Assembly: GCA_021161675.1 (NCBI GenBank) | Contig: JAGHAF010000030.1 | Location: 9,376-73,375 of the forward strand | DNA length: 64,000 nucleotides | DNA from: Planctomycetota bacterium | GTDB lineage: Bacteria > Planctomycetota > Brocadiia > SM23-32 | Direction: 5' to 3' | Shown here: positions 35,835 through 53,110 of the stretch, piece after piece | Layout: each line of letters begins with the position of its first letter | How positions within the stretch are numbered: the first letter of the stretch is position 1 | Position numbers and translations under genes: made by a program | The notes under the pieces: model-generated | Told to the model about the DNA's origin: nothing | What the model saw: only the letters and a program-made list of their open reading frames with translations | The model's database searches: none

Positions 35835-36443
35835 CTACTTGGGGGCCGCCTCCCTCGCTTCAAGCACGGAGACGGCCGTCGCAGCGAAAAGGTTCGCAGC
35901 AAACGCCGGCGCCGGCTTGTAGGCGGGCGTAAAATAGCGACTGTTCACGATGCGCATCCCGTTCTCCCGGCAGAAGCGCCGGAAATCCTTAACCGTCAGC
36001 ACACGAAGGTTCGGCGTGTCGTGCCACCTGTAAGGCAACGTCTTCGTGATCGGGGCGCGGCCCCCGAATAGCAGTTGCAGGCGGATGCGCCAGTGTCCGA
36101 AGTTCGGATAACTGATAATCGAACGCCGGCCCACGCGCAGCATCTCACGCGCCACTTGCGCCGGATTCAGAGCTTGCTGGAGGGTCTGGCTCAGGATAAC
36201 GCAGTCGAAGCTTCCGTCCCGGAACATGCTCATCCCTTCCAGCATGTCCCCGTGGTAGACGGGCACGCCCCGGCGTATGCACTCCCTGACCGCCTGCTCA
36301 TTGATCTCTATGCCACGCGCCTCAACCCCCTTGTCGCGGATTAGACGTTGCAGTAAGGCGCCGTCGCCGCAGCCGAGGTCGAGGACCCTGGCGCCTTGCG
36401 GGATATGCGCCTCGATGTATTCGTAGTCAATGCGAACGCCCAT
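35835..36443 (-). CDS. metW: methionine biosynthesis protein MetW (class I SAM-dependent methyltransferase fold)
   Basis: VLDLGCGDGALL motif, ~200 aa, immediately downstream of metX. Confidence 0.75.
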   Translation of the reverse strand: MGVRIDYEYIEAHIPQGARVLDLGCGDGALLQRLIRDKGVEARGIEINEQAVRECIRRGVPVYHGDMLEGMSMFRDGSFDCVILSQTLQQALNPAQVAREMLRVGRRSIISYPNFGHWRIRLQLLFGGRAPITKTLPYRWHDTPNLRVLTVKDFRRFCRENGMRIVNSRYFTPAYKPAPAFAANLFAATAVSVLEAREAAPK

Positions 36444-38883: not shown

Positions 38884-38923
38884 CTCGTTCTCCCTGGTGC
38901 AAAAGGTGAAGGTGTACCAAGGG

Positions 38924-39313
38924 TTACGTCTTCCGGCCTACCTTCTCGCGGTAGTCCAGAACAGCGGCCTGAAGGGCCTCTTCCGCAAGGACGGAGCAAT
39001 GCCGCTTCCGGGCGGGCAGTCCGCCGAGCGCCTCGGTGACCGCCCTATTCGAGATTTCCAGCGCTTCCTCGACGGTTTTGCCCTTCACCATTTCCGTCAC
39101 GATGCTGCTGCTGGCGATAGCTGCCGCGCAGCCAAACGTCTGAAACTTCGCGTCCACGATGCGGCCGTCCTCCACCTTGATGAACAACTTCATAATGTCC
39201 CCACACACCGGGTTGCCCACCAGCCCCACGCCGTCCGCATTATCAATGACACCAATGTTGCGCGGATTCGTGAAGTAATCCATCACTTTCTCGCTGTAGC
39301 CATCCAACGCCAT
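38924..39313 (-). CDS. NifU/IscU-type Fe-S cluster assembly scaffold
   Basis: 129 aa with [16 protein letters not shown] and a third Cys spaced as in IscU scaffolds. Confidence 0.8.
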
Positions 39314-39368
39314 GATTCTACTCGATTCTGAAGCCCTGAGTGTAAATGTTCATCCTCTGGCCGAATGC

Positions 39369-40184
39369 CTATTCCTTGCGCAGCGGTTCATTCAGGCTCC
39401 CCGACCTGTAGCCCTGGAGGTCAAGCGTGACGTAGACAAACCCCAGGGCCTTGAATTCCTCCACCACCTTCGCGTTCACCTCCGGTTCGGCAAGCCGGTG
39501 GACACGGTCGGCCTCCACTTCTATGCGCGCCAGGGCGCCATGGCTCCTGACCCTGACCTGGCTGAATCCCATTTGCCTGAGCAGCTTCTCGGCCTGCTCC
39601 ACGCGGGCGAGTTTCTCAGCCGTTATCGCCTCCCCGTAGGGGAAGCGCGAGGCCAGGCACGCCATCGAGGGACGGTCCCAGGTTGGCAGACCCATTTCCT
39701 TGGACAGCGCTCGGATGTCGGCCTTCGTGAGGCTGGCCTCCACGAGGGGGCTCTTCACCCCCGCCTCCTTGGCGGCTTTCGTGCCGGGCCGGAAGTCCGA
39801 GCAGTCGTCGAGGTTGGTCGCATCGAGCACAAAGGCGATGCCTTCGCGCTGCGCAATGTCCAGCAGCCTTCGGAACAACTCCCTTTTGCAGTAGTAGCAG
39901 CGCTGGGGCGGGTTCGCTGAGAAGTCCTCGTCAGCCAACTCATCTGTGGAGATCGTCTCATGTCTCACGCCCAGCGAACGCGCTATCCGGCGCGCCTCCT
40001 GGAGTTCCTCCTGCGGATAGATCGCAGAGGCAGCCGTAACGGCGAGGACTTTGCCGTTCAACACGTCGGCCGCGACTTTGAGCAGGAACGTGCTGTCAAC
40101 GCCGCCGGAGTACGCTATCAGGGCGCTGGCCATGCGGCCGAGTGTCGCGCGCAGGCTCTGGAGTTTTTTTTGTGTCGCGATCAT
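39369..40184 (-). CDS. PP-loop ATP pyrophosphatase (TIGR00268/LarE-like putative sulfur transferase)
   Basis: AYSGGVDST PP-loop and conserved CYYCK motif. Confidence 0.65.
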   Translation of the reverse strand: MIATQKKLQSLRATLGRMASALIAYSGGVDSTFLLKVAADVLNGKVLAVTAASAIYPQEELQEARRIARSLGVRHETISTDELADEDFSANPPQRCYYCKRELFRRLLDIAQREGIAFVLDATNLDDCSDFRPGTKAAKEAGVKSPLVEASLTKADIRALSKEMGLPTWDRPSMACLASRFPYGEAITAEKLARVEQAEKLLRQMGFSQVRVRSHGALARIEVEADRVHRLAEPEVNAKVVEEFKALGFVYVTLDLQGYRSGSLNEPLRKE

Positions 40185-41257
40185 TCCACAATCCCTCCGC
40201 CCAGAACGGTGTCGCCGTCGTAGAAAACCGCCGATTGCCCGGAGGCGACCGCCGCCTGCGGCGCCTGAAACGCCACCTCCGCGCAGCCGTCCCCATCTGG
40301 GGCGACGAGAGCCGGGACCTCCGGCTGGCGGTAACGGACCTTTACCGTGACATTCAGCGGGCCTTCCGGCCTCTCGAAAGCAATCCAGTTCATATTCGTG
40401 ACACGCAGCCTGGAGAGCATCAGTTCCTTCCGTGCGCCAACAACGACCGTTCTGAGCGCCGGCTGGACGGCGAGAACGTACAGGGCCTCAGCGGCCGCAA
40501 TGCCCAGGCCCTTGCGCTGGCCCACGGTGTAGAAGGCGACCCCGCTGTGCTCGCCCAGCACGTCGCCGCGCGTGTTCACTATGGGTCCGGGCTGGAGTGA
40601 CTCCGAGAATCTTTCCGCCAGGAACCGCCGGTAGTCTCCGTCCGCGACAAAGCAGACGTCCTGGCTTGCAGGCCTGTCATGAACCGCCAGCCCAAAGGAC
40701 TTCGCCCGTTTTCGTGTCTCCTCTTTGGTCATCTCACCCAACGGGAACATGGCGCGTGAAAGCTGCTCTTGGGAAAGCGAATAAAGGAAGTAAGACTGGT
40801 CTTTAGCGGCGTCCAGCCCCTTTTTCAGCAGATACCTGCCCGTGCGCCTGTCGCGGCAGAGCCTGGCGTAATGGCCCGTCGCTACGCCAGCGGCGCCGAG
40901 GGAATCCGCAAAGTCGAGAAGCCGCCCGAACTTCACGGCGCGATTGCACTCCACGCATGGGTTCGGCGTCCTCCCCGCCAGGTAGGCGCGGCAGAAATAA
41001 TCAACGACCGTTTCCTCAAAGAACTCCACGTAATCGAGCGCGTAGAACGGGATGCCGATGACGGAGGCCGCGCGGCGCGCCACGTCCGCTCCTGCGACCC
41101 CGCAGCAGCCACGCCGGCCTTCCCCGGGCGAGCCCGGATTCGCCAGCTTCAGCGTGACGCCTATCGCCTCACACTCCTGCGCCTTGAGCAACGCGGCGGC
41201 GGTCGAAGAGTCCACCCCGCCGGACATCGCTACCAGTATTGGCTTTTGAGCCGTCAT
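40181..41257 (-). CDS. mnmA: tRNA-specific 2-thiouridylase MnmA
   Basis: VAMSGGVDSS PP-loop, 358 aa with catalytic Cys positions. Confidence 0.85.
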   Translation of the reverse strand: MTAQKPILVAMSGGVDSSTAAALLKAQECEAIGVTLKLANPGSPGEGRRGCCGVAGADVARRAASVIGIPFYALDYVEFFEETVVDYFCRAYLAGRTPNPCVECNRAVKFGRLLDFADSLGAAGVATGHYARLCRDRRTGRYLLKKGLDAAKDQSYFLYSLSQEQLSRAMFPLGEMTKEETRKRAKSFGLAVHDRPASQDVCFVADGDYRRFLAERFSESLQPGPIVNTRGDVLGEHSGVAFYTVGQRKGLGIAAAEALYVLAVQPALRTVVVGARKELMLSRLRVTNMNWIAFERPEGPLNVTVKVRYRQPEVPALVAPDGDGCAEVAFQAPQAAVASGQSAVFYDGDTVLGGGIVE

Positions 41258-41259
41258 CT

Positions 41260-42174
41260 CTACGCCTTCACTGTTTCCACCATTCTATCAACGGCCGCGG
41301 CGGCCCTTGCCCTGACGGCCTCCGGCACTCGCACCTCGTGCTTCATCTCCTCCAGAGACCACAGGACATTCTGGAGGTCTATTCGTTTCATGTTCGGACA
41401 GACTGCGGCTTCCGACGCGGGGTAAAATCGTTTCCCGGGGTTCTCCTTTCGCAGACGATGCAGCAAGCCGACCTCCGTGCCCATGATCAGCTCCTCGCTC
41501 GAGCATTCCCGAGCATAACGGCACATACCGCCGGTGGAAAGGGTGCGGTCGGCCAATGCGACCACCTCCGCAGTGCATTCCGGGTGAACCATCACCTCGG
41601 CCCCTGGATGTTCCTGCTTCAGGCGCAGGATATCCGCCGCGAGAATCCTGACGTGGGTGGGGCAGTAGCCGTCGTAAAGGATCAGGCTCCGGCCGGTTTG
41701 GGACGCCACGTAGGAGCCCAGGTATTTGTCGGGAAAGAAGATTATCTCCGTTTCGGCTTCTATGGACTCCACGACGTCCACGGCGTTCGCTGAAGTGCAG
41801 CAGTAGTCGCTCTCTGCTTTCACCGCAGCGCTGGAGTTCACGTAGCTCACAACGACGGCTCCGGGGCGGCGAGCTTTCATCTCCAGCAGGCGCTCCACGG
41901 GCGCCATGTCTACCATCGGGCAGCCGGCGCGGACGTCCGGGATCAGAACGCTCTTATCGGGGCACAGGATCGAGGCCGTCTCGGCCATGAAGTAGACCCC
42001 GCAAAAGACAATTACGCCGGCCTCGCTCGCGGCAGCCTTCCGGCTCAAGCCCAGCGAATCGCCGACGTAGTCGGCAATATCCTGCACCTCCGGCAACTGG
42101 TAGTTGTGCGCCAGGATAATGGCGCCCCTCCGCTCCTTGAGCGCCCTGATTCGTTCAGTGATGGACTTTCTCAA
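41260..42174 (-). CDS. nadA: quinolinate synthase NadA
   Basis: 304 aa, ILAHNYQ motif and three conserved Cys. Confidence 0.85.
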   Translation of the reverse strand: MRKSITERIRALKERRGAIILAHNYQLPEVQDIADYVGDSLGLSRKAAASEAGVIVFCGVYFMAETASILCPDKSVLIPDVRAGCPMVDMAPVERLLEMKARRPGAVVVSYVNSSAAVKAESDYCCTSANAVDVVESIEAETEIIFFPDKYLGSYVASQTGRSLILYDGYCPTHVRILAADILRLKQEHPGAEVMVHPECTAEVVALADRTLSTGGMCRYARECSSEELIMGTEVGLLHRLRKENPGKRFYPASEAAVCPNMKRIDLQNVLWSLEEMKHEVRVPEAVRARAAAAVDRMVETVKA

Positions 42175-43370
42175 CTCTCTACCCCCCCCGCTTCTTGCGC
42201 ATACAGGGGAGACATCTGACGGAGACGCTGGACGATCTCAATCAGCGACTCCACCACAAAGTCCATTTCCTCCTCGGTGTTATCACGGCCGAGTGAGAAC
42301 CGCAGGCTTCCCTGCGCCAGGGACGGCTCCACACCCATTGCGGCCAGGACGTGCGACGGCTCAAGCGTTCCAGACGTACACGCGGAGCCCGTTGACACGG
42401 CAATCCCACGCATGTCCAGGTTGAGAAGCAGCGACTCACCCTCGATGAAGGCGAAGCTCATGTTCAGCACGTTCGGAAGCCTTCTCTCCGGGGGGCCGTT
42501 CAGATGTACGTGTGCTATTTTCTCTCGTATTCCGCGTTCAAGGCGATCCCTGAGCGCGGCCAACCGGGGGGCGACGCAAGGTATTTCCCCTGTTGCGAGT
42601 TGCACGGCCTTTGCAAGGCCCACGATCGAAGCGACGTTTTCAGTTCCGGCGCGCCGATGGCCTTCATGATGTCCGCCATGGATTATCGGGTCGAATCGCG
42701 AGCCGCTGCGAACGTAGAGCGCGCCGATGCCCTTGGGAGCGTATATCTTATGCCCGGAGAGCGTGAGCAAGTCAACGCCCAATTCTTCCACGTCCACTGG
42801 AATCTTTCCAAGGGCCTGCACCGCATCCGTATGCAGCAGAACGCCCCTCTCTTTCGTAATCTCCGCGATTTCCGCAAGGGGCTCAATCGTTCCGGTTTCG
42901 TTGTTCGCCAGCATTATGGTCACAAGCGTCGTGTCCGGCCGGATCGCATCTTCGAGGACCGCCGGCTCAACGATCCCGAAACGGTCAACCGGCAGATACG
43001 TCACCTCGTAGCCTTCACCCTCGAGGAACTTACAGGAATTCAGGACGGCGTGATGCTCGATCTGCGAGGTGATCAGGCGCTTTCCTTTCTTGCGGTTTGC
43101 ATGCGCTACGCCTTTGATGGCAAGGTTATCCCCCTCGGTGCCGCCGCCGGTGAAGTATATCTCCTTCGCCTTGGCCCCGAGGCAAGCGGCGACGGCTTCC
43201 CTTGCGTCCTCGAGCGCTTTCTTTGCGCTTTGCCCGAACCTGTGAATGCTAGAGGCGTTCCCGAAGGTCTCCGAGAAATAGGGCAGCATCGCCTCCAGGA
43301 CTTCCTGGCGCACGGGCGTCGTCGCAGAATGATCCAGATAAATCGGCTTCATGTTCCTATATCCCCGCAC
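42171..43370 (-). CDS. cysteine desulfurase (NifS/IscS family)
   Basis: PLP fold-type [11 protein letters not shown] lysine motif, C-terminal active-site Cys loop (STGSACTSG). Confidence 0.85.
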
Positions 43371-44070
43371 CGTCCTGCAAGGCCATTGAATGCCGCAGGA
43401 CTACAGATGGTTGTTCACGCCAACACTCGGCCGCAGCGCCCTGCTCAACTGTGGCAAGGCGCTCGTTGATCCGTTCCTGTTCCGCTTCGATTTTGCCAAA
43501 CATCTCCAACACGGGGTCCGGCAGGTTAGCGTGCTCCAGCGCCGCGGAAGCCCCGCGCTTCTCCCGTATGTCCCGCCCCGGAACACCCACTACGGTGGCC
43601 CCGGGCGAGACTGACCTGATGACAACAGATCCGGCGCCTATCCGCGCCTTCTCCCCGACGACGATCGGCCCCAGCAGCACCGCTCCCGCACCGATCACAA
43701 CGCCGTCCTGGACAGTGGGGTGCCGCTTTTTTTTCTCCAGCGACGTCCCGCCCAGAACCACCCCCTGGTACATCAGCACGTCGGCTCCTATCTCAGCCGT
43801 CTCTCCTATCACCACCCCCATGCCGTGATCAATAAAGAACCTCCTGCCTATCCTCGCGCCGGGATGTATCTCAATGCCCGTCAGGAAACGGCTCACGTGA
43901 GATAGCAGCCGCCCAAACAGCCGCAGCTTGTGCGTCCAGAGCCAATGCGCCGCCCGATGCAACCATGTCGCGTGAAGCCCCGGGTAGCATAGAAGCACCT
44001 CGAGGACGCCCCTCGCGGCGGGGTCCTCCCGAAAGACCGTTCTGATGTCTTCTCTTATCCGGCTCAACAA
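43357..44070 (-). CDS. cysE: serine O-acetyltransferase
   Basis: Left-handed beta-helix hexapeptide repeats, 237 aa. Confidence 0.8.
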
Positions 44071-44086
44071 TGTCCGCTCTCCTCGA

Positions 44087-45013
44087 CTATTGCTGGAACA
44101 GCCAGGTAGTCAGGTATCGTTCGCCCGTATCGGGCAGGATCGCCACGATCAGCTTCCCCGCGTTCTCCTCACGCTGCGCCAGATGGACGGCCGCGTGCGC
44201 CGCGGCGCCCGAAGATATCCCCGCCAGGATGCCTTCCTCCTTTGCCAACCGCCGGGCCATTTCACCGGCTTGAGCGCTCGAAACCTGGATCACCTCATCC
44301 ACCAGCTCCATTCGCAGCACATCAGGGACGAAGCCCGCCCCGATGCCCTGTATCTTGTGGGGCCCCGGCTTCCCGCCGGAAAGCGCCGGCGAGTCCTGCG
44401 GCTCCACCGCGACCGCCAGGAACCCGGGCTTACGCGGCTTGATCGCCTCGGCGATGCCGGTTATCGTCCCGCCGGTCCCGACGCCCGAAACGAGGATGTC
44501 AACCTCGCCGTCGGTGTCTTTCCAGATTTCCTCGGCCGTCGTCTCGCGATGCACAGCCGGATTGGCCGGGTTCTTGAACTGCTGCGGCATGTAAGCGTGC
44601 GGGGTTGCGCGCAACAGTTGCCCGGCCTTCTCGATGGCGCCGGGCATGCCTTCTGCGCCGGGGGTCAGCACAAGCTCGGCTCCCAGGACCTGCAGCAGTT
44701 GGCGCCGTTCCACGCTCATGGTGTCCGGCATCGTCAGGGTCAGCCTGTAGCCCCGGGCGGCGCACACGAACGCCAGGGCAATGCCCGTATTGCCACTTGT
44801 CGGTTCGATGATCACCGTGTCCCGCCCTATCAGCCCGCGCTGCTCGGCGTCATCTATCATGCTGAGCGCGATCCTGTCCTTGACGCTGCCGCACGGGTTG
44901 AAGGACTCAAGCTTGCCCACGACCCGGGCGCCGGCGTCTTGAGCAATCCGAGCAAGGCGCACGAGCGGCGTGCCACCGACGGTTTCCGTAATGTCCTGGT
45001 AGATTCTTGCCAT
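44087..45013 (-). CDS. cysK: cysteine synthase A (O-acetylserine sulfhydrylase)
   Basis: PLP fold-type II, KDR lysine motif (SVKDRIA), GTGGT loop. Confidence 0.85.
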
Positions 45014-45049
45014 TCAATCGTCCCTCCAGGTTGGTTTCAAGTTCTTCAT

Positions 45050-45493
45050 TCAGATGTGATACATCAGGCAGTGCGGACCAACCTTCTGCCCCTTCCTTTC
45101 GACCAGGTCTTGAAGGCTCGTGTTCTGGAGAACGTTCTCGATGGACTCCTTCAGTTCCACCCACGTATCGCGGGTCGGGCAAACGTTCTTCATGGGACAC
45201 GCGCCCGGCTCATCCACGCAATCCGTCGGCGCGGTGTCCCCCTCGAGAACATGGTAGATATCATTGAGGCTAATGCTTGCCGGCGGCCTTGCCAGGGAGT
45301 AGCCGCCCTGCACACCACGGTGGGCCACTATCAGGCCCGCCGCCTTCAGCCTGGACACAATCTGCTCCAGATACTTAGCGGAAACGCCCTCCCTCTGCGC
45401 TATGTCTCGCACTGAGACCGTGCCGTCAGGGAAAGCCACGCCAAGATCGACCATGGCCCTCGCTCCGTAGCGCACTCTTGTGGAAAGCTTCAT
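45050..45493 (-). CDS. Rrf2-family transcriptional regulator, IscR-like (three Cys)
   Basis: MKLSTRVRYG N-terminus, wHTH, and CxxxxxCxxxxC cysteines (CVDEPGACPMKNVC). Confidence 0.8.
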   Translation of the reverse strand: MKLSTRVRYGARAMVDLGVAFPDGTVSVRDIAQREGVSAKYLEQIVSRLKAAGLIVAHRGVQGGYSLARPPASISLNDIYHVLEGDTAPTDCVDEPGACPMKNVCPTRDTWVELKESIENVLQNTSLQDLVERKGQKVGPHCLMYHI

Positions 45494-45706
45494 AAGACGC
45501 CTCTCGCATCAAGTATTCCTACCGACACGCTATGATTTTACCAACTCCAGCTACCCGTGTCAAGACATTGCAGAAAATCTGAGAGAATCGCCCCTGTTTC
45601 GCGACGCGGACTTCGAAGCTGAGGCCGCGTAAAGGCGCCCCCGCCCTTTTCCTACTCTTCTACGGGCCGCTGCGACAGAATCCTTGTCACGCAAGGCGCC
45701 CCTCGT

Positions 45707-46564
45707 TCATTGTTCTGTCGAATCGGACTCGGCCGACTTGCTCTCCTGGATGGCCCACTCCAGTTGCTCCTCCAATTCTTCCAGCTCTATCAGCATGGAA
45801 GCGCGCACGGAATGGGCCGGCAGGCGGCTCTTGAGGTCTTCTATTCTCCTCCTCAATTCGTCCGCCTGGCTCGGAGCGGGTCTGCTGGCGTATATGTGCG
45901 AGCAGTCGTCGAGGCTGGTCTCGGCGTCGAGGTTTTCGACCTGAAGGGGCCGAACGTCGTAGCCAATTCCTGTCAGCAAAGTTGTGACATCGTCCGCTGA
46001 GTGCCCGAGCTCTTTGAGATACTCACGATGGAGTTCACAGAATATCTGTGGCCCCTGCTCCTCGAGAATTCGCTTCGCGCCCCGGAGAACGAGCAGCTCG
46101 CTGCCTTCGCAGTCCAGGTATAGAAGGTCGACTCTGTCGATCTTGTGCTCCGCCACAAAGTCAGCTATGTTCGTAGCTTCCACCCGCAACATCTCTGCGT
46201 CTTCCGCCGGCGTTATGCCGCTTTCTCCGCCACGCTTGTAGAGCTCGATGCGCCCTGGCTGGTTGCTCAGGGCAAGCTGGTGGGCGCTCACGTTCTGCGC
46301 GTCATTACGCACGAGGCTCGCCTTCAGCTCTTCATAGAACTCGGGCACGGGTTCGAAGGTGTACAGGCGCCCTTCACTGCCAATCTCTCTGGCTATGGCA
46401 ACGGCAGTCACGCCCCGGTTGGCGCCTGCCTCGATGACGTGCATGCCCGGCCTCAGAACAGAGCGCAGAAACTCCACCTCTCCTGCCTCGTGCGGGCTGT
46501 TCTGCAGTTCGCGCCGGAACTCCTCAGACTCAAGGACGAATTCATTCATCCGCTTTCTTTCCAC
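45707..46564 (-). CDS. FkbM-family methyltransferase
   Basis: VIEAGANRG, LYTFEP and DLLYLDCEGSE motifs. Confidence 0.6.
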   Translation of the reverse strand: MERKRMNEFVLESEEFRRELQNSPHEAGEVEFLRSVLRPGMHVIEAGANRGVTAVAIAREIGSEGRLYTFEPVPEFYEELKASLVRNDAQNVSAHQLALSNQPGRIELYKRGGESGITPAEDAEMLRVEATNIADFVAEHKIDRVDLLYLDCEGSELLVLRGAKRILEEQGPQIFCELHREYLKELGHSADDVTTLLTGIGYDVRPLQVENLDAETSLDDCSHIYASRPAPSQADELRRRIEDLKSRLPAHSVRASMLIELEELEEQLEWAIQESKSAESDSTEQ

Positions 46565-47114
46565 CGACTTTCAGAGGGTATTCTTTCTCCCCTGCGCGAA
46601 TGGAGACCTCGAGCCAGTTCTCCGGGGGGACGAACGGGCATGCGTAGTCTTCGCTGTATGCGCACCACGGATTATAGGCGGCATTCAGATCGAGGATCCA
46701 TTTGCCTTCCTTCGTGAGGTGCTCATATGGCTTCAGGTCCAAATATCTGCCTGCTCCGTAGCTCTCCGCGCCGCTTGTTGCGTCCTTGAATGGTACGAAA
46801 AGTCCCTCTTCATTAGGATCGCTCTTGTAGGCTTGAAGGACATATCGCTGACCGGCCACATCGAAAGCAAATGCCCCCCAACGCAACAGTTCTCTTACGC
46901 GGCCAGCGGTATCGCCTACGTGGAGGATCTGCTTTTCTTTGTGCTCGTCCATCTTGATCTCGTTGCGATACGCTGGATCGGGCGGCCAGTAGGCCAGCCC
47001 CCGGAAGATACGGCGGTCCTCCGCAGATAAGGGCGATTGCGGATGAGAAGCGAAGAAAATATCCTTGCGCCTTCTTTCCGCCTCAACCCGTTTTTTCCAT
47101 GTGTCTACGTCCAT
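46542..47114 (-). CDS. DUF1684-family protein
   Basis: Conserved YxLNPWCAY...YACPFVPPENWL pattern, 190 aa. Confidence 0.55.
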   Translation of the reverse strand: MDVDTWKKRVEAERRRKDIFFASHPQSPLSAEDRRIFRGLAYWPPDPAYRNEIKMDEHKEKQILHVGDTAGRVRELLRWGAFAFDVAGQRYVLQAYKSDPNEEGLFVPFKDATSGAESYGAGRYLDLKPYEHLTKEGKWILDLNAAYNPWCAYSEDYACPFVPPENWLEVSIRAGEKEYPLKVGGKKADE

Positions 47115-47147
47115 TGCCTTCTCCGTTCGTCCCTCTTAGCGCCTCTG

Positions 47148-47321
47148 CTATTCGGGGAGCGAGAGAGCGTTGTTCGGACATGCTTCAACGCACCTACCAC
47201 ACTCCGTGCACAGCTCAGCGCTCACTACCGCCACATCCGCGACGCTGATCGCTCCCTGAGGGCATTCATCCTCGCAAATACCACATGCCACGCATTTGTC
47301 TCCGTCAACGATCGCAGCCAT
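47148..47321 (-). CDS. small 2x[4Fe-4S] ferredoxin (57 aa; not in the ORF track)
   Basis: Minus-strand translation MAAIVDGDKCVACGICEDECPQGAISVADVAVVSAELCTECGRCVEACPNNALSLPE* carries two CxxCxxCxxxCP motifs. AGGAGA RBS 7 nt upstream. Confidence 0.75.
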   Translation of the reverse strand: MAAIVDGDKCVACGICEDECPQGAISVADVAVVSAELCTECGRCVEACPNNALSLPE

Positions 47322-47363
47322 TTCAATTCTCCTGCTATTTGCTGTATTCAGCCGCCTTTCTGC

Positions 47364-47585
47364 TCAGTGGCGTTCCTTACTCGCTGGAGCAGTGGCGCGC
47401 TTTTCCACGGTGACCACAGATTCCATGAAATCAACGCTTAGGATTTCCGCATCCAGTTCGGCGGTATTGCCGAACAGATCAATTATTCGCAGCCCTCCGG
47501 CTGTGCGCTCGATCCGGGCGACATCGCCGAAGACATCCGGTCCCTGTTCTTCCACACCAGCAAACTCTATTCGCGCCAGGCACAT
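47364..47585 (-). CDS. CooT-like small nickel-binding protein
   Basis: 73 aa starting MC (Cys2 is the Ni ligand in CooT). Gly/Asp/Val pattern resembles the CooT beta-barrel. Located next to cooC. Confidence 0.5.
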   Translation of the reverse strand: MCLARIEFAGVEEQGPDVFGDVARIERTAGGLRIIDLFGNTAELDAEILSVDFMESVVTVEKRATAPASKERH

Positions 47586-47787
47586 GATCGTGCTCCCATG
47601 AAGTGAGCCGTGTCAAGACAAAAATTCGAGGCTTCGGTGCGTGGAGTCGACCAATCTCCCATTCGCGCTCGTCCACGCCATTGCGGGGCCGCACACTAAG
47701 CTGGTCCTGTCTGGAGGGGACGCCCATTCTCCTTTTCGCGCCTGCCCTTACGGGCGGCGAGGTAGTGGACATGCGGGCTCCTTTCGC

Positions 47788-48597
47788 TCAATTGCCTTTT
47801 GGGGCCTCAGCGACGGCCAGGATGGAATCCACGAACGATCGGACTTCATCTGCAACCGGTTCCACATTCAGCGCCTTCCCCTCCAGCCCGCCCAGCAGGA
47901 ACTCCTGGCGGAAGGGTATCGCCGAAAGCGCCTGAACGCCCCGCCGCTCGAGGGCCCCTCGGAGCTGGGCCCCAATCTTTTCACTGCTGACTTTGTTCAG
48001 AACCGCTCCCGCGAATCTGGCCCCCGCTTGCGAGGCCAGCGCTTTGATCCGTTCGGCCAAAGTGACAGACTCCAGAGACGGCTCGGCAACCACCATCACT
48101 GCATCGACGCTCGTCTCTACGCCACGGCCGAAATGCTCCACGCCGGCTTCCATGTCCACGACCACAACCTCGTCGTCATCTGTGCGCACCTTCTTGAGAA
48201 ACTCCCGGCTCAGCACACCCATCGGACATGCGCATCCCTCCAGGGCCTGATGGATCTTCCCGATGCACACCAGCCCGACGCCGTCCGCCCATTGCACGTA
48301 GGCGTCTGGCAGCTCGTCCGTGCGGAACTCGTCGCGCGCCAACACAGACTTCTCCCGGTCATCAGCGTCCTCCGTGAAGCCTGTGCGCAGGACGCGCTGA
48401 ATGCTCTTTTTCCCGCCAGCCAGTTCCATCAAGGGGTTGGGCGGCTCGTCGAGGCCGAGCATCCAGTAAAGCCCCGCATTCGATTCGTCTGAATCGACCA
48501 CCAGCACCCGTTTCCCTCTCCTTTGGAGTTCCGCCGCCAGAAGGGCGACCACAGTGCTCTTGCCGCTGCCGCCTTTCCCACAGATACATATCTTCAT
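47788..48597 (-). CDS. cooC: CooC/AcsF-family nickel-insertion ATPase (MinD/ParA fold)
   Basis: Start MKICICGKGGSGKST (deviant Walker A). Internal GCAC motif matches the CooC CxC Ni site. The tracked ORF extends 24 codons upstream. Confidence 0.7.
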   Translation of the reverse strand: MKICICGKGGSGKSTVVALLAAELQRRGKRVLVVDSDESNAGLYWMLGLDEPPNPLMELAGGKKSIQRVLRTGFTEDADDREKSVLARDEFRTDELPDAYVQWADGVGLVCIGKIHQALEGCACPMGVLSREFLKKVRTDDDEVVVVDMEAGVEHFGRGVETSVDAVMVVAEPSLESVTLAERIKALASQAGARFAGAVLNKVSSEKIGAQLRGALERRGVQALSAIPFRQEFLLGGLEGKALNVEPVADEVRSFVDSILAVAEAPKGN

Positions 48598-49235
48598 GCC
48601 ATTTCCTTCCCTGCCGGGCCCTTGCGCCCTTCGGCCCAGATGAGCTGGCCCTGTGCGATAAGCCTGCACTCGACGTCCGTAAAGCCCGCCTTCCTCAGCA
48701 GTTCCACGACTTCGGTTGGTGTCAAATAGCTTTCATTCCACAGCCGCTGCGCCAGCGAGTCACGTGGGAAGTCCACCACCAGAATCTCGCCCCCACTACG
48801 CAGAACCCGCCGGGCTTCTCTGAGCACTTCCAGCGGTTCCTGCATCTCGTGAAGGGCGTGTGCGCTCAGCGCAGCATCGACCGAATCGTCGTAGATGAAT
48901 TCAAGCCTCCGCGCATCGGCTTCGCGGCACTCAACACTGCCCTGCCCGCCGGGCTCTTCCGAGAAGCCACTGCCGTAGATGTCCACTCCGACCACGTGCT
49001 GGGCATTCTCGCGGGCCAGAAAACGGGCGAGTTCACAAGAACCGCAGCCGAGGTCGACAACGTGATGGGCGAAACTCAGCCTGGCTGCAATGCGTGCCCG
49101 GATGTCGTGCTCAATTCGCTCGTAGAAATCCTCCGGTACGTCGAGGCTCTCAACTTGATTCTTCTCAGCAGGCATTGATGGCCACTCCACTAGGATAAGG
49201 GCCCGCCCGGGTTCTGCCGGGGGGGGGGGAACCAT
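48594..49235 (-). CDS. class I SAM-dependent methyltransferase
   Basis: VDLGCGSCELARFLA motif I, ~210 aa. Confidence 0.6.
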   Translation of the reverse strand: MVPPPPAEPGRALILVEWPSMPAEKNQVESLDVPEDFYERIEHDIRARIAARLSFAHHVVDLGCGSCELARFLARENAQHVVGVDIYGSGFSEEPGGQGSVECREADARRLEFIYDDSVDAALSAHALHEMQEPLEVLREARRVLRSGGEILVVDFPRDSLAQRLWNESYLTPTEVVELLRKAGFTDVECRLIAQGQLIWAEGRKGPAGKEMA

Positions 49236-49238
49236 CGC

Positions 49239-49877
49239 TCACTTGTGCGCCTCCAGTAGCCGCAGGTAGCCGCGGTAGAAGGGGTAAGACCTGAAGTCTG
49301 CGAATCCAGCCGATCGCAACATCCCCTCCAGGTCCAATTCAAGAAACTCAAGGGCCAACTCGCACTCCACGCGAGTAAAAGCCCAACGCAAGGGGCGCCA
49401 CACCTTTCCCAGATCGAATTCGCTGTAATCCAAAATCCACAGAGCGCCTCCTGGCTTCAACGCCTTGTAAGCGTTCGCAATTATCTGCTCTTTGCTGTCA
49501 TTCTCGAACCCGTGAAAGACAAAAAAGAGGCACGCCTTGTCAAACTCGGCGTCAAGATTGAGAGGGCGTTCAATCCGAGCCTTTAGAAAGCCGACCTGCG
49601 GGTATCCTCGGCAGCGGGATCGCGATTGCCGAAGCATTTCCTCGCCGGTGTCAACACCGAGCACGCGCCCGGTGGGCCCGACCATTTTTGTCATCAGGCA
49701 CGCGTTGCGCCCAGTCCCCGACCCAAGGTCCAGTACGCCATCCCCCAGCTTTAACTCCATCCTGGCCAGGACAGCCCGTAGGAAATGGCGATACGTTCCC
49801 AGGAAAAGAAGGTCCATTACCAGATCGTAATGCCGGGCAAAGAAACCGTGCACCTCCACTTTGCTCCGTCGTGTCAT
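49239..49877 (-). CDS. class I SAM-dependent methyltransferase (UbiE/COQ5-like)
   Basis: LDLGSGTGRNA motif I and VGPTGRVLGVD motif. Confidence 0.6.
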   Translation of the reverse strand: MTRRSKVEVHGFFARHYDLVMDLLFLGTYRHFLRAVLARMELKLGDGVLDLGSGTGRNACLMTKMVGPTGRVLGVDTGEEMLRQSRSRCRGYPQVGFLKARIERPLNLDAEFDKACLFFVFHGFENDSKEQIIANAYKALKPGGALWILDYSEFDLGKVWRPLRWAFTRVECELALEFLELDLEGMLRSAGFADFRSYPFYRGYLRLLEAHK

Positions 49878-49879
49878 CT

Positions 49880-50197
49880 TTAAATCAGGGATAAAACTAA
49901 ACGCAGGCTCGCGTGATCGCTGTTATTGGTGTAATGGAACAGAAACCCGAAATATGCCGCTTTACCAAGGAGCAAAGGCTTGAACTGCCAATCAGGATAA
50001 AATGTCCAATCCACCTGCACCCCCTTATGCGCCAGGTTGCGGGCCTGGACGGACCTGCTCGCCACAACCGGTGTTGAGACATGCACACTTCGCCCCTGCG
50101 ATAACCGCAGAAGGAAAAGACCGGCGCGCCAGGGCAGCAAGACCACTACCAACCCGATGAGCACAGTTCCGAATCGAGATGAGATCGAACCTTTCAT
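49880..50197 (-). CDS. hypothetical small membrane protein
   Basis: 105 aa with an N-terminal TM segment. Its stop abuts the start of the downstream methyltransferase. Lower GC than surroundings. Weak. Confidence 0.3.
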   Translation of the reverse strand: MKGSISSRFGTVLIGLVVVLLPWRAGLFLLRLSQGRSVHVSTPVVASRSVQARNLAHKGVQVDWTFYPDWQFKPLLLGKAAYFGFLFHYTNNSDHASLRLVLSLI

Positions 50198-50270
50198 TGT
50201 CTTGGCGTCCTGGATTCTCTGGCAACAGAAAGGAATTCTGACGGCCTGCCCTCAAAGAATGGAAACGGCA

Positions 50271-50894
50271 CTACCGACAACATGTCCTTAAGCTGAACCA
50301 ACCCGATCCCCTTTGTGTTTCATTAGAAAACCAGCCTGCATCTACTGACTCGTCGGGTAGGGGCGCGTCCGTTGGTGTGCCCGTTTTTTCAGGTACAAAT
50401 GTAGCCTCTATGTTGTCCGCCGTATTCCCCCTGGCCCTACCCATCAATTCATAAAGGACACCTTTCTCTTTATCTACGGCATACACCCGTCCTTGGGGAC
50501 CGACTACCCTGGCAAGAATTAGACTGTAGTCCCCATTGCCGCATCCGAAATCCATTACTGTCTGACCTTCCCTCACACCAACCCGTCTCAATAGGTCCGG
50601 CCCATCGCGCTCCAGAAACCTCGCAACGGAAATGATCGCCCTGGCTATAAGAAAACTCTTTATCCACCTGGTGTATGGCTCTGAAGGGCTACGTTTATTG
50701 TCACTCCTGCGGTACCAATTCCCATAGGCGCCCACAGGGATTCCCACTTCATCTGCGGTGGCCGATCGCGACAAACCTTCGCCGCGCCGCCATTCCTCCA
50801 ATTTCTTCAAGTATAGCTCGATAGGTGTGCTGCTCATTTGGACTTCCTCATCCAGAGCGTACAGAAGCGAGCGGGAGACCATGCGCCGACACAC
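50271..50894 (-). CDS. class I SAM-dependent methyltransferase
   Basis: VMDFGCGNGDYS motif I and VGPQGRVYAVD motif. Resembles the methyltransferase at 49239..49877. Confidence 0.6.
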   Translation of the reverse strand: MCRRMVSRSLLYALDEEVQMSSTPIELYLKKLEEWRRGEGLSRSATADEVGIPVGAYGNWYRRSDNKRSPSEPYTRWIKSFLIARAIISVARFLERDGPDLLRRVGVREGQTVMDFGCGNGDYSLILARVVGPQGRVYAVDKEKGVLYELMGRARGNTADNIEATFVPEKTGTPTDAPLPDESVDAGWFSNETQRGSGWFSLRTCCR

Positions 50895-51756
50895 CCACCC
50901 GGTCTTCCTGGCTCACCATGTCTGTGAAACGCCCGCCTGACTGAACCAGCCAACGTGATGACGGGGAATGTAGCAGCCAGGCTGAGGCCAAACAGGTAAC
51001 CGTGAGAGGCTTCGATGGTCTGAGCGAACTTCATGAGGAAAACAACCAGGAGCGCGGTGGGCGCTATCCCGATCATAATAGTTGAAGCCCGCCGCGCGGG
51101 TGCTATATGTTTCTAGAAATAACGATGCCAAACTGCGGCTCCAGCAAAAAGGAAATTTAACACACCTACCCCAAGGGCTACCATTCAGATAACGAAAAGC
51201 GCCGGCGCCAGCCGCGTATCTGCCAAGTACACATCCATGGACCACGCTCCGAGCACGGGTATTATCAGGTCAGAGACGGGCCGAATGAACCAGGGGAGTT
51301 GGCGTGTTCCAGAGCAGCATTTTTCTTGAGGAACTGGGGGCGGATGATCAGAAAGCCAAAGGTAAAGATCCCCGCTGCCCCGATGAAGAAGAATATTGCT
51401 CCCAGATAGTACGCAACAGTCGGCCCGAACAGAAGCGGCCCCAGTTTTCTCGTCCCTGTGCCGGCAAGAATGAAGCTGATCGGAACGGTCGGGAAGAAGT
51501 TCCCCCGCACGCGATCAGCCAGGTCCTTCTTCACCTCGTCGGGATACCAGAAGAACCGGAGCGCCCAGGGCGCCAGCACCCCAACGAACATCAAGCTCGC
51601 CACCAGGTAGTACCCCAACCCGATGTAGAGCGCTGGAGAAAACGGCCGTGCTACCTCTGGGGACACCTGCATGGTGATCATTATCGCCGCCGTTCCCATC
51701 ACCCCCGCGGCCCATTCGGGCCCAAAATGCCACACAATTCGCCTGATCATCCTCAT
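50834..51756 (-). pseudogene. probable disrupted TDT-family (TehA/Mae1-like) transporter gene
   Basis: 51265..51756 encodes a 163-aa N-terminal fragment with the GPEWAAGVMGTAAI signature and five TM helices. A further hydrophobic fragment lies in another frame (50834..51076). No single intact frame spans the region. Confidence 0.3.
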
Positions 51757-52234
51757 TCTCGCTCATGCACGGAGACTCGTCGCCTGGCGCCAATCACCGC
51801 CGGTCGCTACCACTGCGTTTCTGCTCCCAATCGCACCTTCCGTTTGCATCGCATAGAGAACACCAAACGGCCCTAACACTCTCGCCACCCCACTATCGAG
51901 TTGCCCCGGTCTCCAGTTAGGCCGGCTCGGTGTTCAACATATCGAACATGGTAGCATACCTCGAAGACTATGTCAAAGTAAGAACTCGAAAACTTCGCCT
52001 ATGGCCAAACTCAACGGCCGGTTTGGCGAAAGGAGCAGCGGCAAAACGCTCAGAGGTCGCCCCGCTCGCGCAGAAGTGCTTCGTGGTCTGCGCAACACAC
52101 AAATTCTTCACCAGGAGCGCTGGATTTGGCCATGCCACTGCCTGAAGACTCTGTGTTCCGCTGGCGTTGGTAATTCAGCGGCGCTTCATGCCGCCCCTTC
52201 TTGCCCTGGTCGTCGTATGCGGCTCCCCCGCGGC

Positions 52235-53110
52235 TCATCCGTAGAGCGCCACCACCACCAGTCCGGCCACTATCGCCACAGCCGCCGGCAGGCGCACGGC
52301 CAGTCCACGTTCGCGGTAAATCCTGAACGCCAGCGCCACCCCGATCAGGATGCTGAATTGGCGAAAGGCCAGCAGGTAGCTGGTCTGCGGCGCCATCTGG
52401 AAAGCCCATAGCACCAGCGCATAACCTGAAAAACCTAATACGGCGCCGATAGCCGGCAGTCCCCAGCCGACCTCCCCGGCGCGCTCTTTCTGCGTCGCAA
52501 AGAGCGCATGGATTGTGAGGTAGCTGAGGCACGACATGATGTGGAACAAGCCGCAGTATATGACCGCGCTGGCCAGCCCCGGCCGAACGGTCTCCGCCCC
52601 GATCTTGTCGAGCATGGTGTAGCCGACGATCGTCGCCGCCGTGAGCAGTATCCACAGGATCGACCTGGCGCGGTAGCGCTTGAGGGCGAAGTCACCGTAG
52701 GATTCCTGCGGAGCCAGAACGCACCCCCCCACAACCATCAACAGGCCAACCCAGCCCAGCCCGGTCGGATGACGACCGCGCAGCATGTCCAGCAATGCCA
52801 CTATTAGCACCGGCGTCGCCCTGGCCACCGGGTAGACGACGGTGAAGTCCGACATGCTGTACGCCAGTCCGAGGAACCGGTAGTAAAGCCCGACTATCAC
52901 GCCCGAGGCCGCCACGCAGAAACACGCCTTCAGAGGAAAGGAATAAGGAAAGCGCGTGGCAATGCCGATGGCCGCCAGGCCGATAGGGATCGAGAGAATT
53001 AGCATGTGGCGGAAGAAAAGGAGCTCCCGCCGCCCGCGCCGGGCCAGCAGATTCCACCCCGCGTGCATGAAACACGAGATGAGGATCAGGACAATGGGCA
53101 ACAGGGACAT
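52235..53110 (-). CDS. EamA/DMT-superfamily permease
   Basis: About 10 predicted TM helices, duplicated EamA-like halves, YPVARATPVL motif. Confidence 0.5.
   Translation of the reverse strand: MSLLPIVLILISCFMHAGWNLLARRGRRELLFFRHMLILSIPIGLAAIGIATRFPYSFPLKACFCVAASGVIVGLYYRFLGLAYSMSDFTVVYPVARATPVLIVALLDMLRGRHPTGLGWVGLLMVVGGCVLAPQESYGDFALKRYRARSILWILLTAATIVGYTMLDKIGAETVRPGLASAVIYCGLFHIMSCLSYLTIHALFATQKERAGEVGWGLPAIGAVLGFSGYALVLWAFQMAPQTSYLLAFRQFSILIGVALAFRIYRERGLAVRLPAAVAIVAGLVVVALYG

Follow-up and report, generated by a model that had tools for sequence, protein, structure and literature searches.

The window, by which we mean the whole 64,000-nucleotide stretch of DNA analysed, carries on its minus strand three genes between positions 47148 and 48597 that the first-pass annotation had read as cooC, cooT and a small ferredoxin gene. 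All three were found at those positions. They encode a CooC-type P-loop ATPase of 269 amino acids that apparently belongs to a distinct subfamily without CODH linkage (47788-48597), a CooT-type small beta-barrel protein of 73 amino acids with an N-terminal Met-Cys (47364-47585), and a 57-aa 2x[4Fe-4S] ferredoxin (47148-47321). The ferredoxin has two CxxCxxCxxxCP motifs, CVACGICEDECP and CTECGRCVEACP, with cysteines at 10/13/16/20 and 38/41/44/48, and matched the Fer4 (E=4e-18) and Fer4_7 (E=2.5e-13) profiles.

The neighbours, all on the minus strand, were also as first described, namely a DUF1684 protein and four SAM-dependent methyltransferases, one of which is apparently truncated. The class-I methyltransferase next to the ATPase, MT_a (48594-49235; Methyltransf_11, E=2e-16), is 213 aa long from the first ATG and 193 aa long if the second Met is the start, and its stop codon and the start codon of the ATPase share a 4-nt overlap. 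A second class-I enzyme, MT_b (49239-49877; 212 aa; Methyltransf_25, E=6.4e-18), lies beyond it. Alignments showed two invariant cysteines and one conserved cysteine in MT_a and several conserved cysteines in MT_b, one of them invariant in an 'EC.LA' motif. On the other side of the ferredoxin gene are the 190-aa DUF1684 protein (46542-47114; PF07920, E=5.8e-45), which has a conserved cysteine pair in CAYSEDYACP and is homologous to PDB 2lnu and 2lok, both deposited as 'uncharacterized protein', and a 285-aa FkbM-family methyltransferase (45707-46564; TIGR01444, E=5.8e-29) with a C-terminal helical tail (~45710-45877) that carries a 'PAHS' motif, LPAHSVRASMLIELEELEEQLE. The next unit is opened by an Rrf2-family regulator gene (45050-45493), which has its own strong promoter-like site (45563-45535, scan score 11/12) and is followed by cysK, cysE, nifS and nadA. 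As judged from their sequences, the methyltransferases beside the pair are generic class-I SAM methyltransferases. Their assignment as ArsM, CpaM or DVU_1556 was rejected, with scores of 56-67 bits against NCBIfam cut-offs of 155-263. No family with a known metal requirement was among their matches.

The upstream end of the gene row is less regular. An ORF of 105 aa (49880-50197) without a recognisable family had no match in Pfam or NCBIfam, is annotated as a gene in near-identical contigs, and may be a remnant of the gene upstream of it. The fourth methyltransferase gene (50271-50894), which resembles a further family, MT_c, matched Methyltransf_25 at profile positions 1-72 of 97 only, and its similarity to an intact MT_c representative ends after '...DESVDA'; because similarity is lost part-way through the domain, the gene is probably frameshifted or truncated. 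The short form recurs in three independent assemblies. Farther upstream lies a 163-aa N-terminal fragment of a SLAC1/TehA-type anion or tellurite-resistance channel (51265-51756), whose PF03595 match is limited to profile positions 1-136 of 331. The same fragment is present in independent contigs, and it is probably outside the functional operon.

The start codon of the ATPase gene is the ATG used by every homologue. The protein has a deviant Walker A motif, GKGGSGKST, at residues 7-15 with a cysteine directly before the P-loop (CGKGGSGKST), and further contains DSDESN, EAGVEHFGRG and a Cys-x-Cys metal motif, GKIHQALEGCACP. Its top sequence match in the PDB, and the sole one over the full length, was C. 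hydrogenoformans CooC1 (3kje; E=3.6e-16, residues 1-242 against 1-230). In this alignment the 'GCACP' of the ATPase falls on the Cys-x-Cys 'QCYC' of CooC1, with C122-A-C124 opposite C-Y-C, and the Cys-x-Cys is invariant in 16 of 16 members of the ATPase clade examined. Matches to MinD were weaker, with the strongest stretch confined to the N-terminal part; the top NCBIfam match, archaeal MinD, scored far under its cut-off, and the match to the ArsA_ATPase profile spanned the P-loop only. The AlphaFold model (pLDDT 86) has a SIMIBI fold that matched MinD, CooC1 and NifH with probability 1.0, and the structure search gave no separation of CooC from MinD, ParA or NifH. NCBI names the ATPase merely 'P-loop NTPase' and its 73-aa partner 'CooT family nickel-binding protein'. 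Full-length similarity and the CXC motif indicate that the ATPase is closer to CooC than to MinD or Mrp. Its earlier identification as CooC thus stood in part: the full-length CooC1 match and the CXC motif support it, whereas the fold is undiscriminating and the protein sits in a clade of its own, 20-32% identical to CooC1-type proteins.

The 73-aa protein was suggested to be CooT, and a profile search agreed: it scored 35.6 bits with Pfam PF10133 (CooT), for which the gathering cut-off is 27, and residues 1-61 aligned with the complete profile (positions 1-60 of 60). The protein opens with MCLARIEF, i.e. it keeps Cys2, which in R. rubrum CooT is the ligand of Ni. This residue is present in 47 of 48 CooT-like relatives encoded beside the ATPase clade and is invariant in a further alignment. 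When the AlphaFold model (pLDDT 79) was compared with the PDB by Foldseek, the top seven matches were all CooT structures (6fan, 5n76, 6y8v; E from 1.5e-4 to 6.8e-3, TM 0.67-0.84), and the first match other than CooT had E=0.06. The profile, Cys2 and the predicted fold together indicate that the protein is CooT-like. Fusions of the CooT domain to other proteins were considered as a clue to the client and rejected: an exhaustive representative search gave only 20 matches, of which 19 were small stand-alone proteins and one was a weak partial match in a 1211-aa protein.

A spacer of 202 nt (47586-47787, minus strand), which holds a TTGACA-like hexamer, separates the ATPase gene from the CooT-like gene, compared with ~10-60 nt in most relatives (56 loci measured). 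The long spacer and the two degraded-looking upstream genes suggest that the operon may be partly decaying at this locus. A riboswitch such as NiCo, in the operon or in the spacer, was rejected for want of an Rfam match; Rfam gave nothing at gathering score across the window and nothing at E<=1 within 45000-52500.

The window had been said to contain no CODH or acetyl-CoA synthase gene, and both the domain search and tblastn came back empty. There was no Prismane/CooS domain in the large ORFs of the window, and tblastn with D. kuznetsovii CooS, AcsB and CFeSP as queries gave no match across ~73 kb of contig, the window plus 8.9 kb upstream of it. A cooS gene just outside the window in the same operon, the case that would have undone the earlier reading, was likewise absent from the operon and its surroundings, including the 8.9 kb upstream. 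The contig encodes two [NiFe]-hydrogenases, one of the group-4 Mbh/Mrp type and another whose large subunit lies at 12706-14244; both are 33-50 kb from the pair. The statement that the hydrogenase has its own HypA and HypB was correct: hypA, hypB, hypF, hypC, hypD, hypE and hycI are all beside the hydrogenase genes in the window. That cooC and cooT normally lie beside cooS was too strong a premise for CooT, since PMC6006190, citing Timm et al., gives CODH as absent from 26 of 111 CooT-containing proteomes and present in 85 of 111.

Relatives of the ATPase form a compact group. Identity is at least 51% inside the clade and 20-32% to 119 CooC1-type proteins, and the split between the two received 86-92% bootstrap in a tree whose reference was CooC1-type proteins only, CooC3, R. 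rubrum CooC and archaeal types being left out. The cysteine before the P-loop, DSDESN and GKIHQALEGCACP are invariant signatures of the clade's own. On this sequence evidence, the ATPase belongs to a distinct clade, separate from CooC1-type proteins. Relatives with the EGCACP[MI]G or CGKGGS motifs occur in at least 571 species genomes, which span many anaerobic phyla, and a search of the literature on this clade found nothing relevant. One MAG (CAZUUK01) holds four paralogues of the ATPase, suggesting that there are several clients.

We analyzed the neighbours of the ATPase by an HMM scan over all ORFs of 87 loci that carry a relative. A CODH/ACS gene was found by tblastn within ~10 kb in only three of the 87 (L082, L051 and L084), whereas two CooC1-type controls lay directly beside CooS, ACS or CFeSP genes. 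In L082 the genes for CooS, a radical SAM protein, PtsI, the CooC-like protein, the CooT-like protein, NifU and MTHFR follow one another on one strand; no second, canonical CooC was found next to the ACS genes in the stretches examined of L051 and L084. In 59 of 84 loci a same-strand CooT-like gene began no more than 400 nt downstream of the ATPase gene; counted anywhere in the locus, CooT-like genes were present in 70 of 87. At least one of five SAM methyltransferase families was encoded within 2 kb in 44 of the 87 loci, and the methyltransferase genes often share the orientation of the ATPase gene. The 4-nt overlap of the MT_a stop and the ATPase start was seen in 10 loci, whose identified hosts include Planctomycetota, Armatimonadota, Bacillota and 'Zipacnadia', and the MT_b family was upstream of the ATPase within 700 nt in nine loci and within 5 kb in 13. 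Within 5 kb, DUF1684 was present in 12 of 87 loci and DUF1638 in 25 of 87, the latter directly after the CooT-like gene in many Anaerolineae. RACo, which is also part of the canonical acs operon, was present in seven loci. Other recurrent neighbours were thioredoxin with its reductase, Grx, NifU, Mrp, small ferredoxins and Fur regulators; the HMM counts for MinD-Fer4 and Mrp are inflated by the ATPase itself, and for those two the cluster counts apply. The neighbours vary strongly by lineage (methyltransferases, DUF1638/RACo, Trx/TrxR, NifU/Mrp, MBL or radical SAM), and no single conserved client emerged from them across the 87 loci.

These data lead us to favour, tentatively and at somewhat less than an even chance, the explanation that the pair is an orphan CooC/CooT-type metallochaperone module, a widespread uncharacterised subfamily not dedicated to a neighbouring CODH. 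Because the subfamily stands mostly beside methyltransferase, thiol-redox and Fe-S genes, the pair probably loads nickel or a similar metal. By analogy with its characterised counterparts, the module would most likely carry out an ATP-driven, thiolate-based delivery of a metal, probably Ni, to a client other than CODH. A dimer of the CooT-like protein would capture a thiophilic divalent metal, likeliest Ni(II), through Cys2 and the N-terminus, and would hand it to a four-cysteine site formed by the CXC motifs at the ATPase dimer interface. Binding and hydrolysis of ATP might then release the metal into the client or remodel the client site, and the ferredoxin could maintain the cysteines, or the site in the client, in the reduced state. 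The client is probably encoded in the same operon, which is the weakest step of the explanation. The first candidate is the translationally coupled methyltransferase MT_a, followed by MT_b and the DUF1684 protein, both with conserved cysteines, and by the FkbM enzyme. The first-pass annotation had also proposed that this CooC matures some other nickel or Fe-S enzyme, possibly the adjacent proteins; the separate clade and the 84 of 87 loci without CODH/ACS within ~10 kb favour the former, and the adjacent proteins stand as candidates only.

The pair could instead be an ordinary nickel-insertion system for CODH/ACS that acts in trans on CooS/ACS encoded elsewhere in the genome, with RACo, DUF1638, ferredoxins, NifU and Mrp as further Wood-Ljungdahl maintenance factors. 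Many host groups, among them Desulfobacterales, Dehalococcoidia and Methanosarcinales, use the Wood-Ljungdahl pathway, and a distant CODH/ACS client is therefore plausible. The three relatives within 10 kb of CooS or AcsB/CFeSP, among them L082 with CooS and MTHFR on the same strand, keep action in trans a live rival, and the seven loci with RACo, a canonical acs operon gene, and the 25 with DUF1638, thought to aid cobalamin recharging, point the same way, as does the presence of CODH in 85 of 111 CooT-containing proteomes (PMC6006190). We nevertheless consider it unlikely, if still a serious contender: CODH/ACS genes are missing from the ~10 kb around the ATPase in 84 of 87 loci, whereas both CooC1-type controls adjoin theirs, the ~73 kb of contig searched has none, the clade is only 20-32% identical to CooC1-type proteins, one MAG holds as many as four paralogues, and the tight coupling to SAM methyltransferases would be left unexplained. 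DUF1638 and RACo could also belong to a cobalt or corrinoid module, in which the pair would repair or load a corrinoid methyl-transfer system together with SAM methyltransferases that remethylate Co(II). The position of DUF1638 right after the CooT-like gene in many Anaerolineae, a protein with an AcsC-type N-terminal FeS domain in Dehalococcoidia operons of the clade, and weak NCBIfam matches of the methyltransferases to the corrinoid-protein-associated CpaM are consistent with this. A B12-binding or CdhD-type corrinoid protein, however, was seen beside the pair in L084 only, the window itself lacks DUF1638 and RACo, and the methyltransferases score well under the CpaM cut-off. The chemistry of CooT and CooC is moreover established for Ni and Zn, and we regard a corrinoid role as highly improbable.

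A different role for the methyltransferases would be expected if the locus were an island that detoxifies and methylates metals or metalloids (As, Sb, Te, Se or a soft metal), in which ferredoxin or thioredoxin supplies reducing power and the thiolates of the CooT-like and CooC-like proteins capture the toxic ion for the SAM methyltransferases, much as ArsD passes arsenite to ArsA. In several loci the pair is bordered by genes for ArsR-family regulators (within 5 kb in seven of 87), Trx, TrxR and Grx are found repeatedly, and one relative locus encodes an ArsP-like permease together with an FMN reductase and a protein for cation efflux. Several methyltransferases recur as well, with conserved cysteines in MT_a and MT_b; their best NCBIfam matches include, weakly, arsenite methyltransferase models, and in the window a TehA-type channel fragment lies just upstream. 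These methyltransferases reach only 67 bits against 263 for ArsM, however, and lack the ArsM C-terminal domain; no ArsC, Acr3 or ArsB was recognised among the annotated neighbours, and the ArsR representative is without the classic CVC arsenite site. The operon of the window has no ArsR, the genes for TehA and the fourth methyltransferase appear to be broken there, and DUF1638, RACo, NifU and Mrp would find no explanation, so that detoxification appears distinctly unlikely. It is hardly credible that the two [NiFe]-hydrogenases of the contig obtain their nickel from the pair, beside HypA/HypB or in their place. The presence of both enzymes shows that the cell clearly needs nickel, but the full set from hypA to hycI is beside them, the neighbour families that recur in the 87 loci include no hydrogenase genes, and R. 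rubrum CooC, CooT and CooJ were reported not to mature the Coo hydrogenase (PMC6006190).

The metallochaperone explanation can be set against known systems. The ATPase shares with the CooC1/AcsF type (3kje; R. rubrum CooC) the MinD-type SIMIBI fold, the deviant Walker A motif, an IEH..RG segment and a Cys-x-Cys that aligns residue for residue. It differs in that its clade is 20-32% identical to CooC1, has its own signatures, lies away from cooS/acsB in 84 of 87 loci and is sometimes translationally coupled to a SAM methyltransferase. The CooT-like protein has the Met-Cys start and, by prediction, the beta-barrel of the known CooTs (5n76 and 6y8v from R. rubrum, 6fan from C. hydrogenoformans; TM up to 0.84), but it is 19-23% identical to the solved proteins, has a C-terminal extension of ~10 residues, and is partnered by the non-CODH ATPase clade and not by cooS and cooJ. 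A phmmer search of the PDB with this protein gave no match. HypB/HypA and UreG/UreE follow the logic of the model proposed above for the pair, a SIMIBI NTPase with an interface metal site and a small metal-binding partner; their families and clients differ from those of the pair. ArsA/ArsD likewise combines a related P-loop ATPase, in which cysteines form the metal(loid) sites, with a small chaperone that also relies on cysteines, an analogy only: by sequence the ATPase is not a member, and no arsenic pump genes were recognised nearby.

To our knowledge, the literature regards CooC and CooT as specific to CODH. The finding at the family level, a separate and highly conserved CooC/CooT-type clade that is rarely near CODH/ACS, is new. 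If its client is not CODH/ACS, the clade would point to an unrecognised metal-dependent enzyme or metal-handling pathway that is common in anaerobes. The label 'CO dehydrogenase maturation factor', which KEGG-style pipelines give to these genes, may wrongly suggest CO metabolism in MAGs. Cultured hosts of the clade, e.g. Desulfosarcina widdelii and Syntrophus aciditrophicus, make this reading directly testable.

A bolder proposal, which we put forward as a low-probability one, is that the pair and the coupled methyltransferase constitute a new soft-metal (e.g. nickel) enzyme system, with the 'PAHS' element as a third docking or metal-binding partner. Two versions can be envisaged: the chaperones would metallate the methyltransferase or a neighbour, or they would feed a methylation of the metal or metalloid itself. 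Few systems that mature nickel enzymes are known (Hyp, Ure, CooCTJ/AcsF, Lar and F430/MCR), and such a nickel or other soft-metal enzyme system, if real, would add a client class to this short list. The 'PAHS' helical element could be comparable, as a third partner, to CooJ of R. rubrum, which is coiled-coil and histidine-rich; the element has one conserved His and one conserved Met but no histidine-rich tract, and the likeness proposed is one of role, not of homology. Besides this tail, the motif was seen in other proteins and, near the pair, in a small ORF of its own. The tail family had no significant match in Pfam or NCBIfam, and a word-indexed homologue search with the tail returned four small proteins only. 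One of the four, from Thermincola potens, is encoded next to a ferredoxin, a Nitro_FeMo-Co protein, a MerR regulator and a TrxR-like gene.

The CooC/CooT pair lies in a tight string of genes on the minus strand (45.7-50.9 kb) of a Planctomycetota MAG, to which families were assigned with Pfam and NCBIfam. In transcription order, the string begins with a SAM methyltransferase gene (50271-50894) whose similarity is lost part-way through the domain, and continues with a 105-aa ORF without a recognised family (49880-50197), two class-I SAM methyltransferases of the families MT_b (49239-49877) and MT_a (48594-49235), a P-loop ATPase of 269 aa (47788-48597), a CooT-like protein of 73 aa (47364-47585), a 57-aa ferredoxin with two canonical CxxCxxCxxxCP motifs (47148-47321), a DUF1684 protein (46542-47114) and, last, an FkbM-family methyltransferase (45707-46564). 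Next comes a unit with a strong promoter-like site of its own and the order Rrf2, cysK, cysE, nifS, nadA. The first-pass annotation had counted four SAM methyltransferases in the operon; all four are present, but the one at 50271-50894 looks truncated, departing from its own family after 'DESVDA'. Upstream of the string, also on the minus strand, a SLAC1/TehA channel gene is represented by an N-terminal fragment of 163 aa (51265-51756; profile positions 1-136 of 331). Short versions of both genes recur in three independent metagenome contigs, suggesting that they are real decayed genes and not assembly errors. G+C is lowest in this part of the minus strand (0.555, 49880-51756).

The ATPase and CooT-like genes are separated by an unusual spacer of 202 nt (47586-47787), most relatives having about 10-60 nt. 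The spacer contains a TTGACA-like hexamer, returned no Rfam match, and may hold an internal promoter or regulatory element. Downstream of the string, a minus-strand run of sulfur-amino-acid and Fe-S genes (35835-45493) includes Rrf2, cysK, cysE, a nifS-type desulfurase, nadA, an mnmA-like tRNA thiolase, a PP-loop ATPase, a NifU_N protein and an O-acetylhomoserine sulfhydrylase-like gene; judged by ORF features, the stretch 35835-37618 appears to hold metX and metW. This run may be functionally unrelated to the CooC/CooT string.

We examined the identity of the two putative chaperones. The ATPase carries the deviant Walker A motif GKGGSGKST, and its closest solved relative by sequence is CooC1 of C. 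hydrogenoformans (3kje, E=3.6e-16, residues 1-242 aligned), with C122-A-C124 aligning exactly with the Cys-x-Cys metal motif of CooC1. Matches to MinD were weaker, and the strongest MinD stretch was N-terminal. The AlphaFold model (pLDDT 86) showed a MinD/CooC/NifH fold, but because its two top matches were archaeal MinD (1hyq) and CooC1, the fold does not discriminate CooC from MinD. The 73-aa protein begins with Met-Cys and passed the Pfam CooT profile check (35.6 bits; gathering threshold 27); the only PDB matches of its model (pLDDT 79) were CooT structures, solved by crystallography or NMR (6fan, 5n76, 6y8v; TM 0.67-0.84), with no other entry under E=0.06. Together with the two ferredoxin motifs, these results confirm the CooC-type, CooT-type and ferredoxin genes that had been annotated at 47148-48597. 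The proteins are recognisable members of known families, and the CooT-like one is already annotated so: NCBI names it 'CooT family nickel-binding protein' (MCD6415545.1) and the ATPase 'P-loop NTPase' (MCD6415546.1). JGI/KEGG-style pipelines name members of the ATPase clade 'CO dehydrogenase maturation factor', a label that could wrongly steer metabolic reconstructions from MAGs in the direction of CO metabolism.

A search of 5.8 billion proteins with the ATPase gave 5,602 matches at E<=1e-10, the best 120 of which were all 54-100% identical to it. Alignment of 16 of these 120 revealed the invariant blocks C-GKGGSGKST, DSDESN, GKIHQALEGCACP, EAGxEHFGRGxETS and EPSLES. When genomes, one per species, were scanned for two invariant-block motifs, at least 571 had a confirmed relative; the hosts include Planctomycetota, Chloroflexota (Dehalococcoidia, Anaerolineae), Armatimonadota, Nitrospiraceae, Bacillota, one Methanosarcinales archaeon and, among Desulfobacterota, an isolate (Desulfosarcina widdelii) and MAGs classified as Syntrophus aciditrophicus. 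One Planctomycetota MAG, CAZUUK01, has four paralogues (loci L015, L017, L030, L073), each in a different neighbourhood, which suggests several clients or conditions. Members of the clade are at least 51% identical to each other and 20-32% identical to 119 relatives of CooC1, and neighbour-joining split the two groups with 86-92% bootstrap. On this basis the ATPase is, by sequence, most likely a CooC-family protein of a distinct subfamily.

No CODH or acetyl-CoA synthase gene had been noticed in the window, and our searches bear this out: a domain scan of its large ORFs found no Prismane/CooS domain, and tblastn with the bona fide CooS, AcsB and CFeSP of Desulfofundulus kuznetsovii returned nothing from the window or from 8.9 kb upstream of it, taken from the 92.6-kb ENA contig. 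We then compared 87 loci holding the ATPase or a relative (the window, six loci with pre-computed Pfam tables and 80 genome loci) by clustering ORFs and searching cluster-built HMMs against all ORFs. A CooT-like gene started on the same strand within 400 nt downstream of the ATPase in 59 of the 84 loci with enough sequence, and was present somewhere in 70 of the 87; Cys2 was retained in 47 of 48 CooT-like proteins. CODH/ACS genes were rare. CooS was seen solely in L082, a Deltaproteobacteria MAG locus and the best counter-example to a complete lack of CODH linkage, where one strand (3990-13211) carries Nitro_FeMo-Co, CooS, radical SAM, a PtsI-like PEP-utilising enzyme, CooC-like, CooT-like, NifU and MetV/MetF (MTHFR) genes. 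AcsB lies 7.6 kb away in L051, and AcsB and CFeSP are on the opposite strand in L084. With the same tools, the control genes, C. hydrogenoformans CooC1 and a D. kuznetsovii homologue, directly adjoined CooS, ACS and CFeSP. Timm et al., as cited in PMC6006190, counted 26 of 111 CooT-containing proteomes without CODH.

At least one of five SAM methyltransferase families occurred within 2 kb of the ATPase in 44 of the 87 loci and within 5 kb in 51. In ten loci, the identified ones including Planctomycetota, Armatimonadota, Bacillota and 'Zipacnadia', the MT_a stop codon overlaps the ATPase start codon by 4 nt, the tightest conserved link of the ATPase to any non-chaperone gene. In the MT_a alignment two cysteines are invariant and a third is conserved; in that of MT_b one is invariant and several are conserved. 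DUF1684, whose PDB structures are solely 'uncharacterized protein', has a conserved Cys pair. DUF1638 was found within 5 kb in 25 of the 87 loci. Other recurrent neighbours were thioredoxin reductase, thioredoxin, glutaredoxin, small ferredoxins, NifU/IscU, Mrp, MinD-ferredoxin ATPases with Nitro_FeMo-Co proteins, an MBL-fold protein, a radical SAM protein, FmdB zinc ribbons, RACo, DUF1684 and Fur- or ArsR-family regulators. In two Dehalococcoidia loci, L043 (about 8.8-15.4 kb) and L060, nine genes separate the ATPase and CooT-like genes in a long operon: Fur, small ferredoxin, MT_b, Nfu-like 85-aa protein, ATPase, glutaredoxin-like, GroES-like, YfhL ferredoxin, TrxR, MT_c methyltransferase, 165-aa ORF, thioredoxin, AcsC-type FeS-domain protein, cysteine-rich 116-aa protein and CooT-like. 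In several Dehalococcoidia (L047, L061, L081, L086 and L087), the pair is attached to a gene cluster that recurs between loci and encodes Nitro_FeMo-Co proteins, two MinD-ferredoxin ATPases and an Mrp-type ATPase, a set similar to the 'orange protein' (orp) genes of Desulfovibrio.

In R. rubrum, each CooT dimer takes up one Ni by way of Cys2; CooC1 has at its interface a CXC site that binds Ni or Zn and lets the metal go when ATP binds (PMC6006190 and work by Dobbek and Cavazza). By analogy, we infer that the CooT-like dimer would capture a thiophilic divalent ion, most likely Ni(II), and pass it to a four-cysteine site of the ATPase dimer, and that ATP turnover would deliver the ion into a client or remodel the client site, while the co-transcribed ferredoxin would maintain the thiolates or the client in reduced form. 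The client would preferably be operon-encoded, with MT_a the first candidate, followed by MT_b, DUF1684 and FkbM. The sequence and fold determinants, the pairing, the separate clade and the lack of CODH linkage are observations; the metal, the order of transfer and the client are derived from the analogy.

The strongest rival, which we consider possible but less likely, is that the pair acts in trans on CODH/ACS encoded elsewhere in the genome. The Wood-Ljungdahl pathway can occur in most host lineages of the clade, CooS or AcsB is close to three of the relatives, and RACo and, probably, DUF1638 are corrinoid-reactivation factors, RACo also occurring within the canonical acs operon. The same two neighbours point to a possible part in cobalt or corrinoid handling, but neither is present in the window and, apart from L084, no corrinoid protein was seen in the neighbourhoods. 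The ArsR regulators, the several methyltransferases, the thiol reductases and the remnants of transporters would all be accounted for by an island for metal(loid) methylation or detoxification; however, the methyltransferases score far under ArsM cut-offs, and no arsenic pump gene was recognised among the annotated neighbours.

Two nickel enzymes are encoded on the same contig as the orphan pair. The window's first 14,244 nt, together with the 8.9 kb upstream, encode a group-4 Mbh/Mrp-type membrane [NiFe]-hydrogenase that comprises antiporter-like subunits, an FAD/NAD-binding subunit and a CooF/HycB-like Fe-S protein. Next come hycI, hypA, hypB, hypF, hypC, hypD and hypE and, after them, the genes for the small (about 11707-12675) and large (12706-14244) subunits of another [NiFe]-hydrogenase. 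Because a full hyp set stands beside them, it is unlikely that the pair helps the hydrogenases. An operon-encoded client remains our preferred reading, and the system would be clearly interesting if the client proves other than CODH/ACS. In the searchable literature, we found nothing on a distinct, very widespread CooC/CooT subfamily or its systematic separation from CODH/ACS, on its translational coupling to a SAM methyltransferase or the shared 'PAHS' element described below, or on its genomic setting amid thiol-redox, Fe-S and Fur/ArsR-regulated genes.

The window FkbM methyltransferase ends in a helical tail, ...LKSRLPAHSVRASMLIELEELEEQLE (45710-45877, minus strand), that contains this element of about 40 residues, with the conserved pattern '...DLK.R.PAHS(V/I).P(S/A)M..ELEELEE.L' and no match to Pfam or NCBIfam models. 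Three forms were seen: FkbM homologues of Planctomycetota loci end in it, the ATPase itself carries it as a C-terminal extension in P0118 and L022, and elsewhere it is a free ORF with a stop-to-stop frame of about 50-115 codons. The free ORF often directly precedes the ATPase gene, L077 and L085 (both S. aciditrophicus-type) being examples of this form. The element was counted in about 19 of the 87 loci. The carriers named are the window, L012-L017, L022, L031, L035, L066, L071, L074, L077, L085, P0118 and the Thermincola loci L094-L096, and a free copy in Thermincola potens has a ferredoxin, a Nitro_FeMo-Co protein, MerR and a TrxR-like gene as neighbours. We speculate that the element may be a docking or metal-binding helix. 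One copy is named 'putative two-component sensor histidine kinase' in UniRef.
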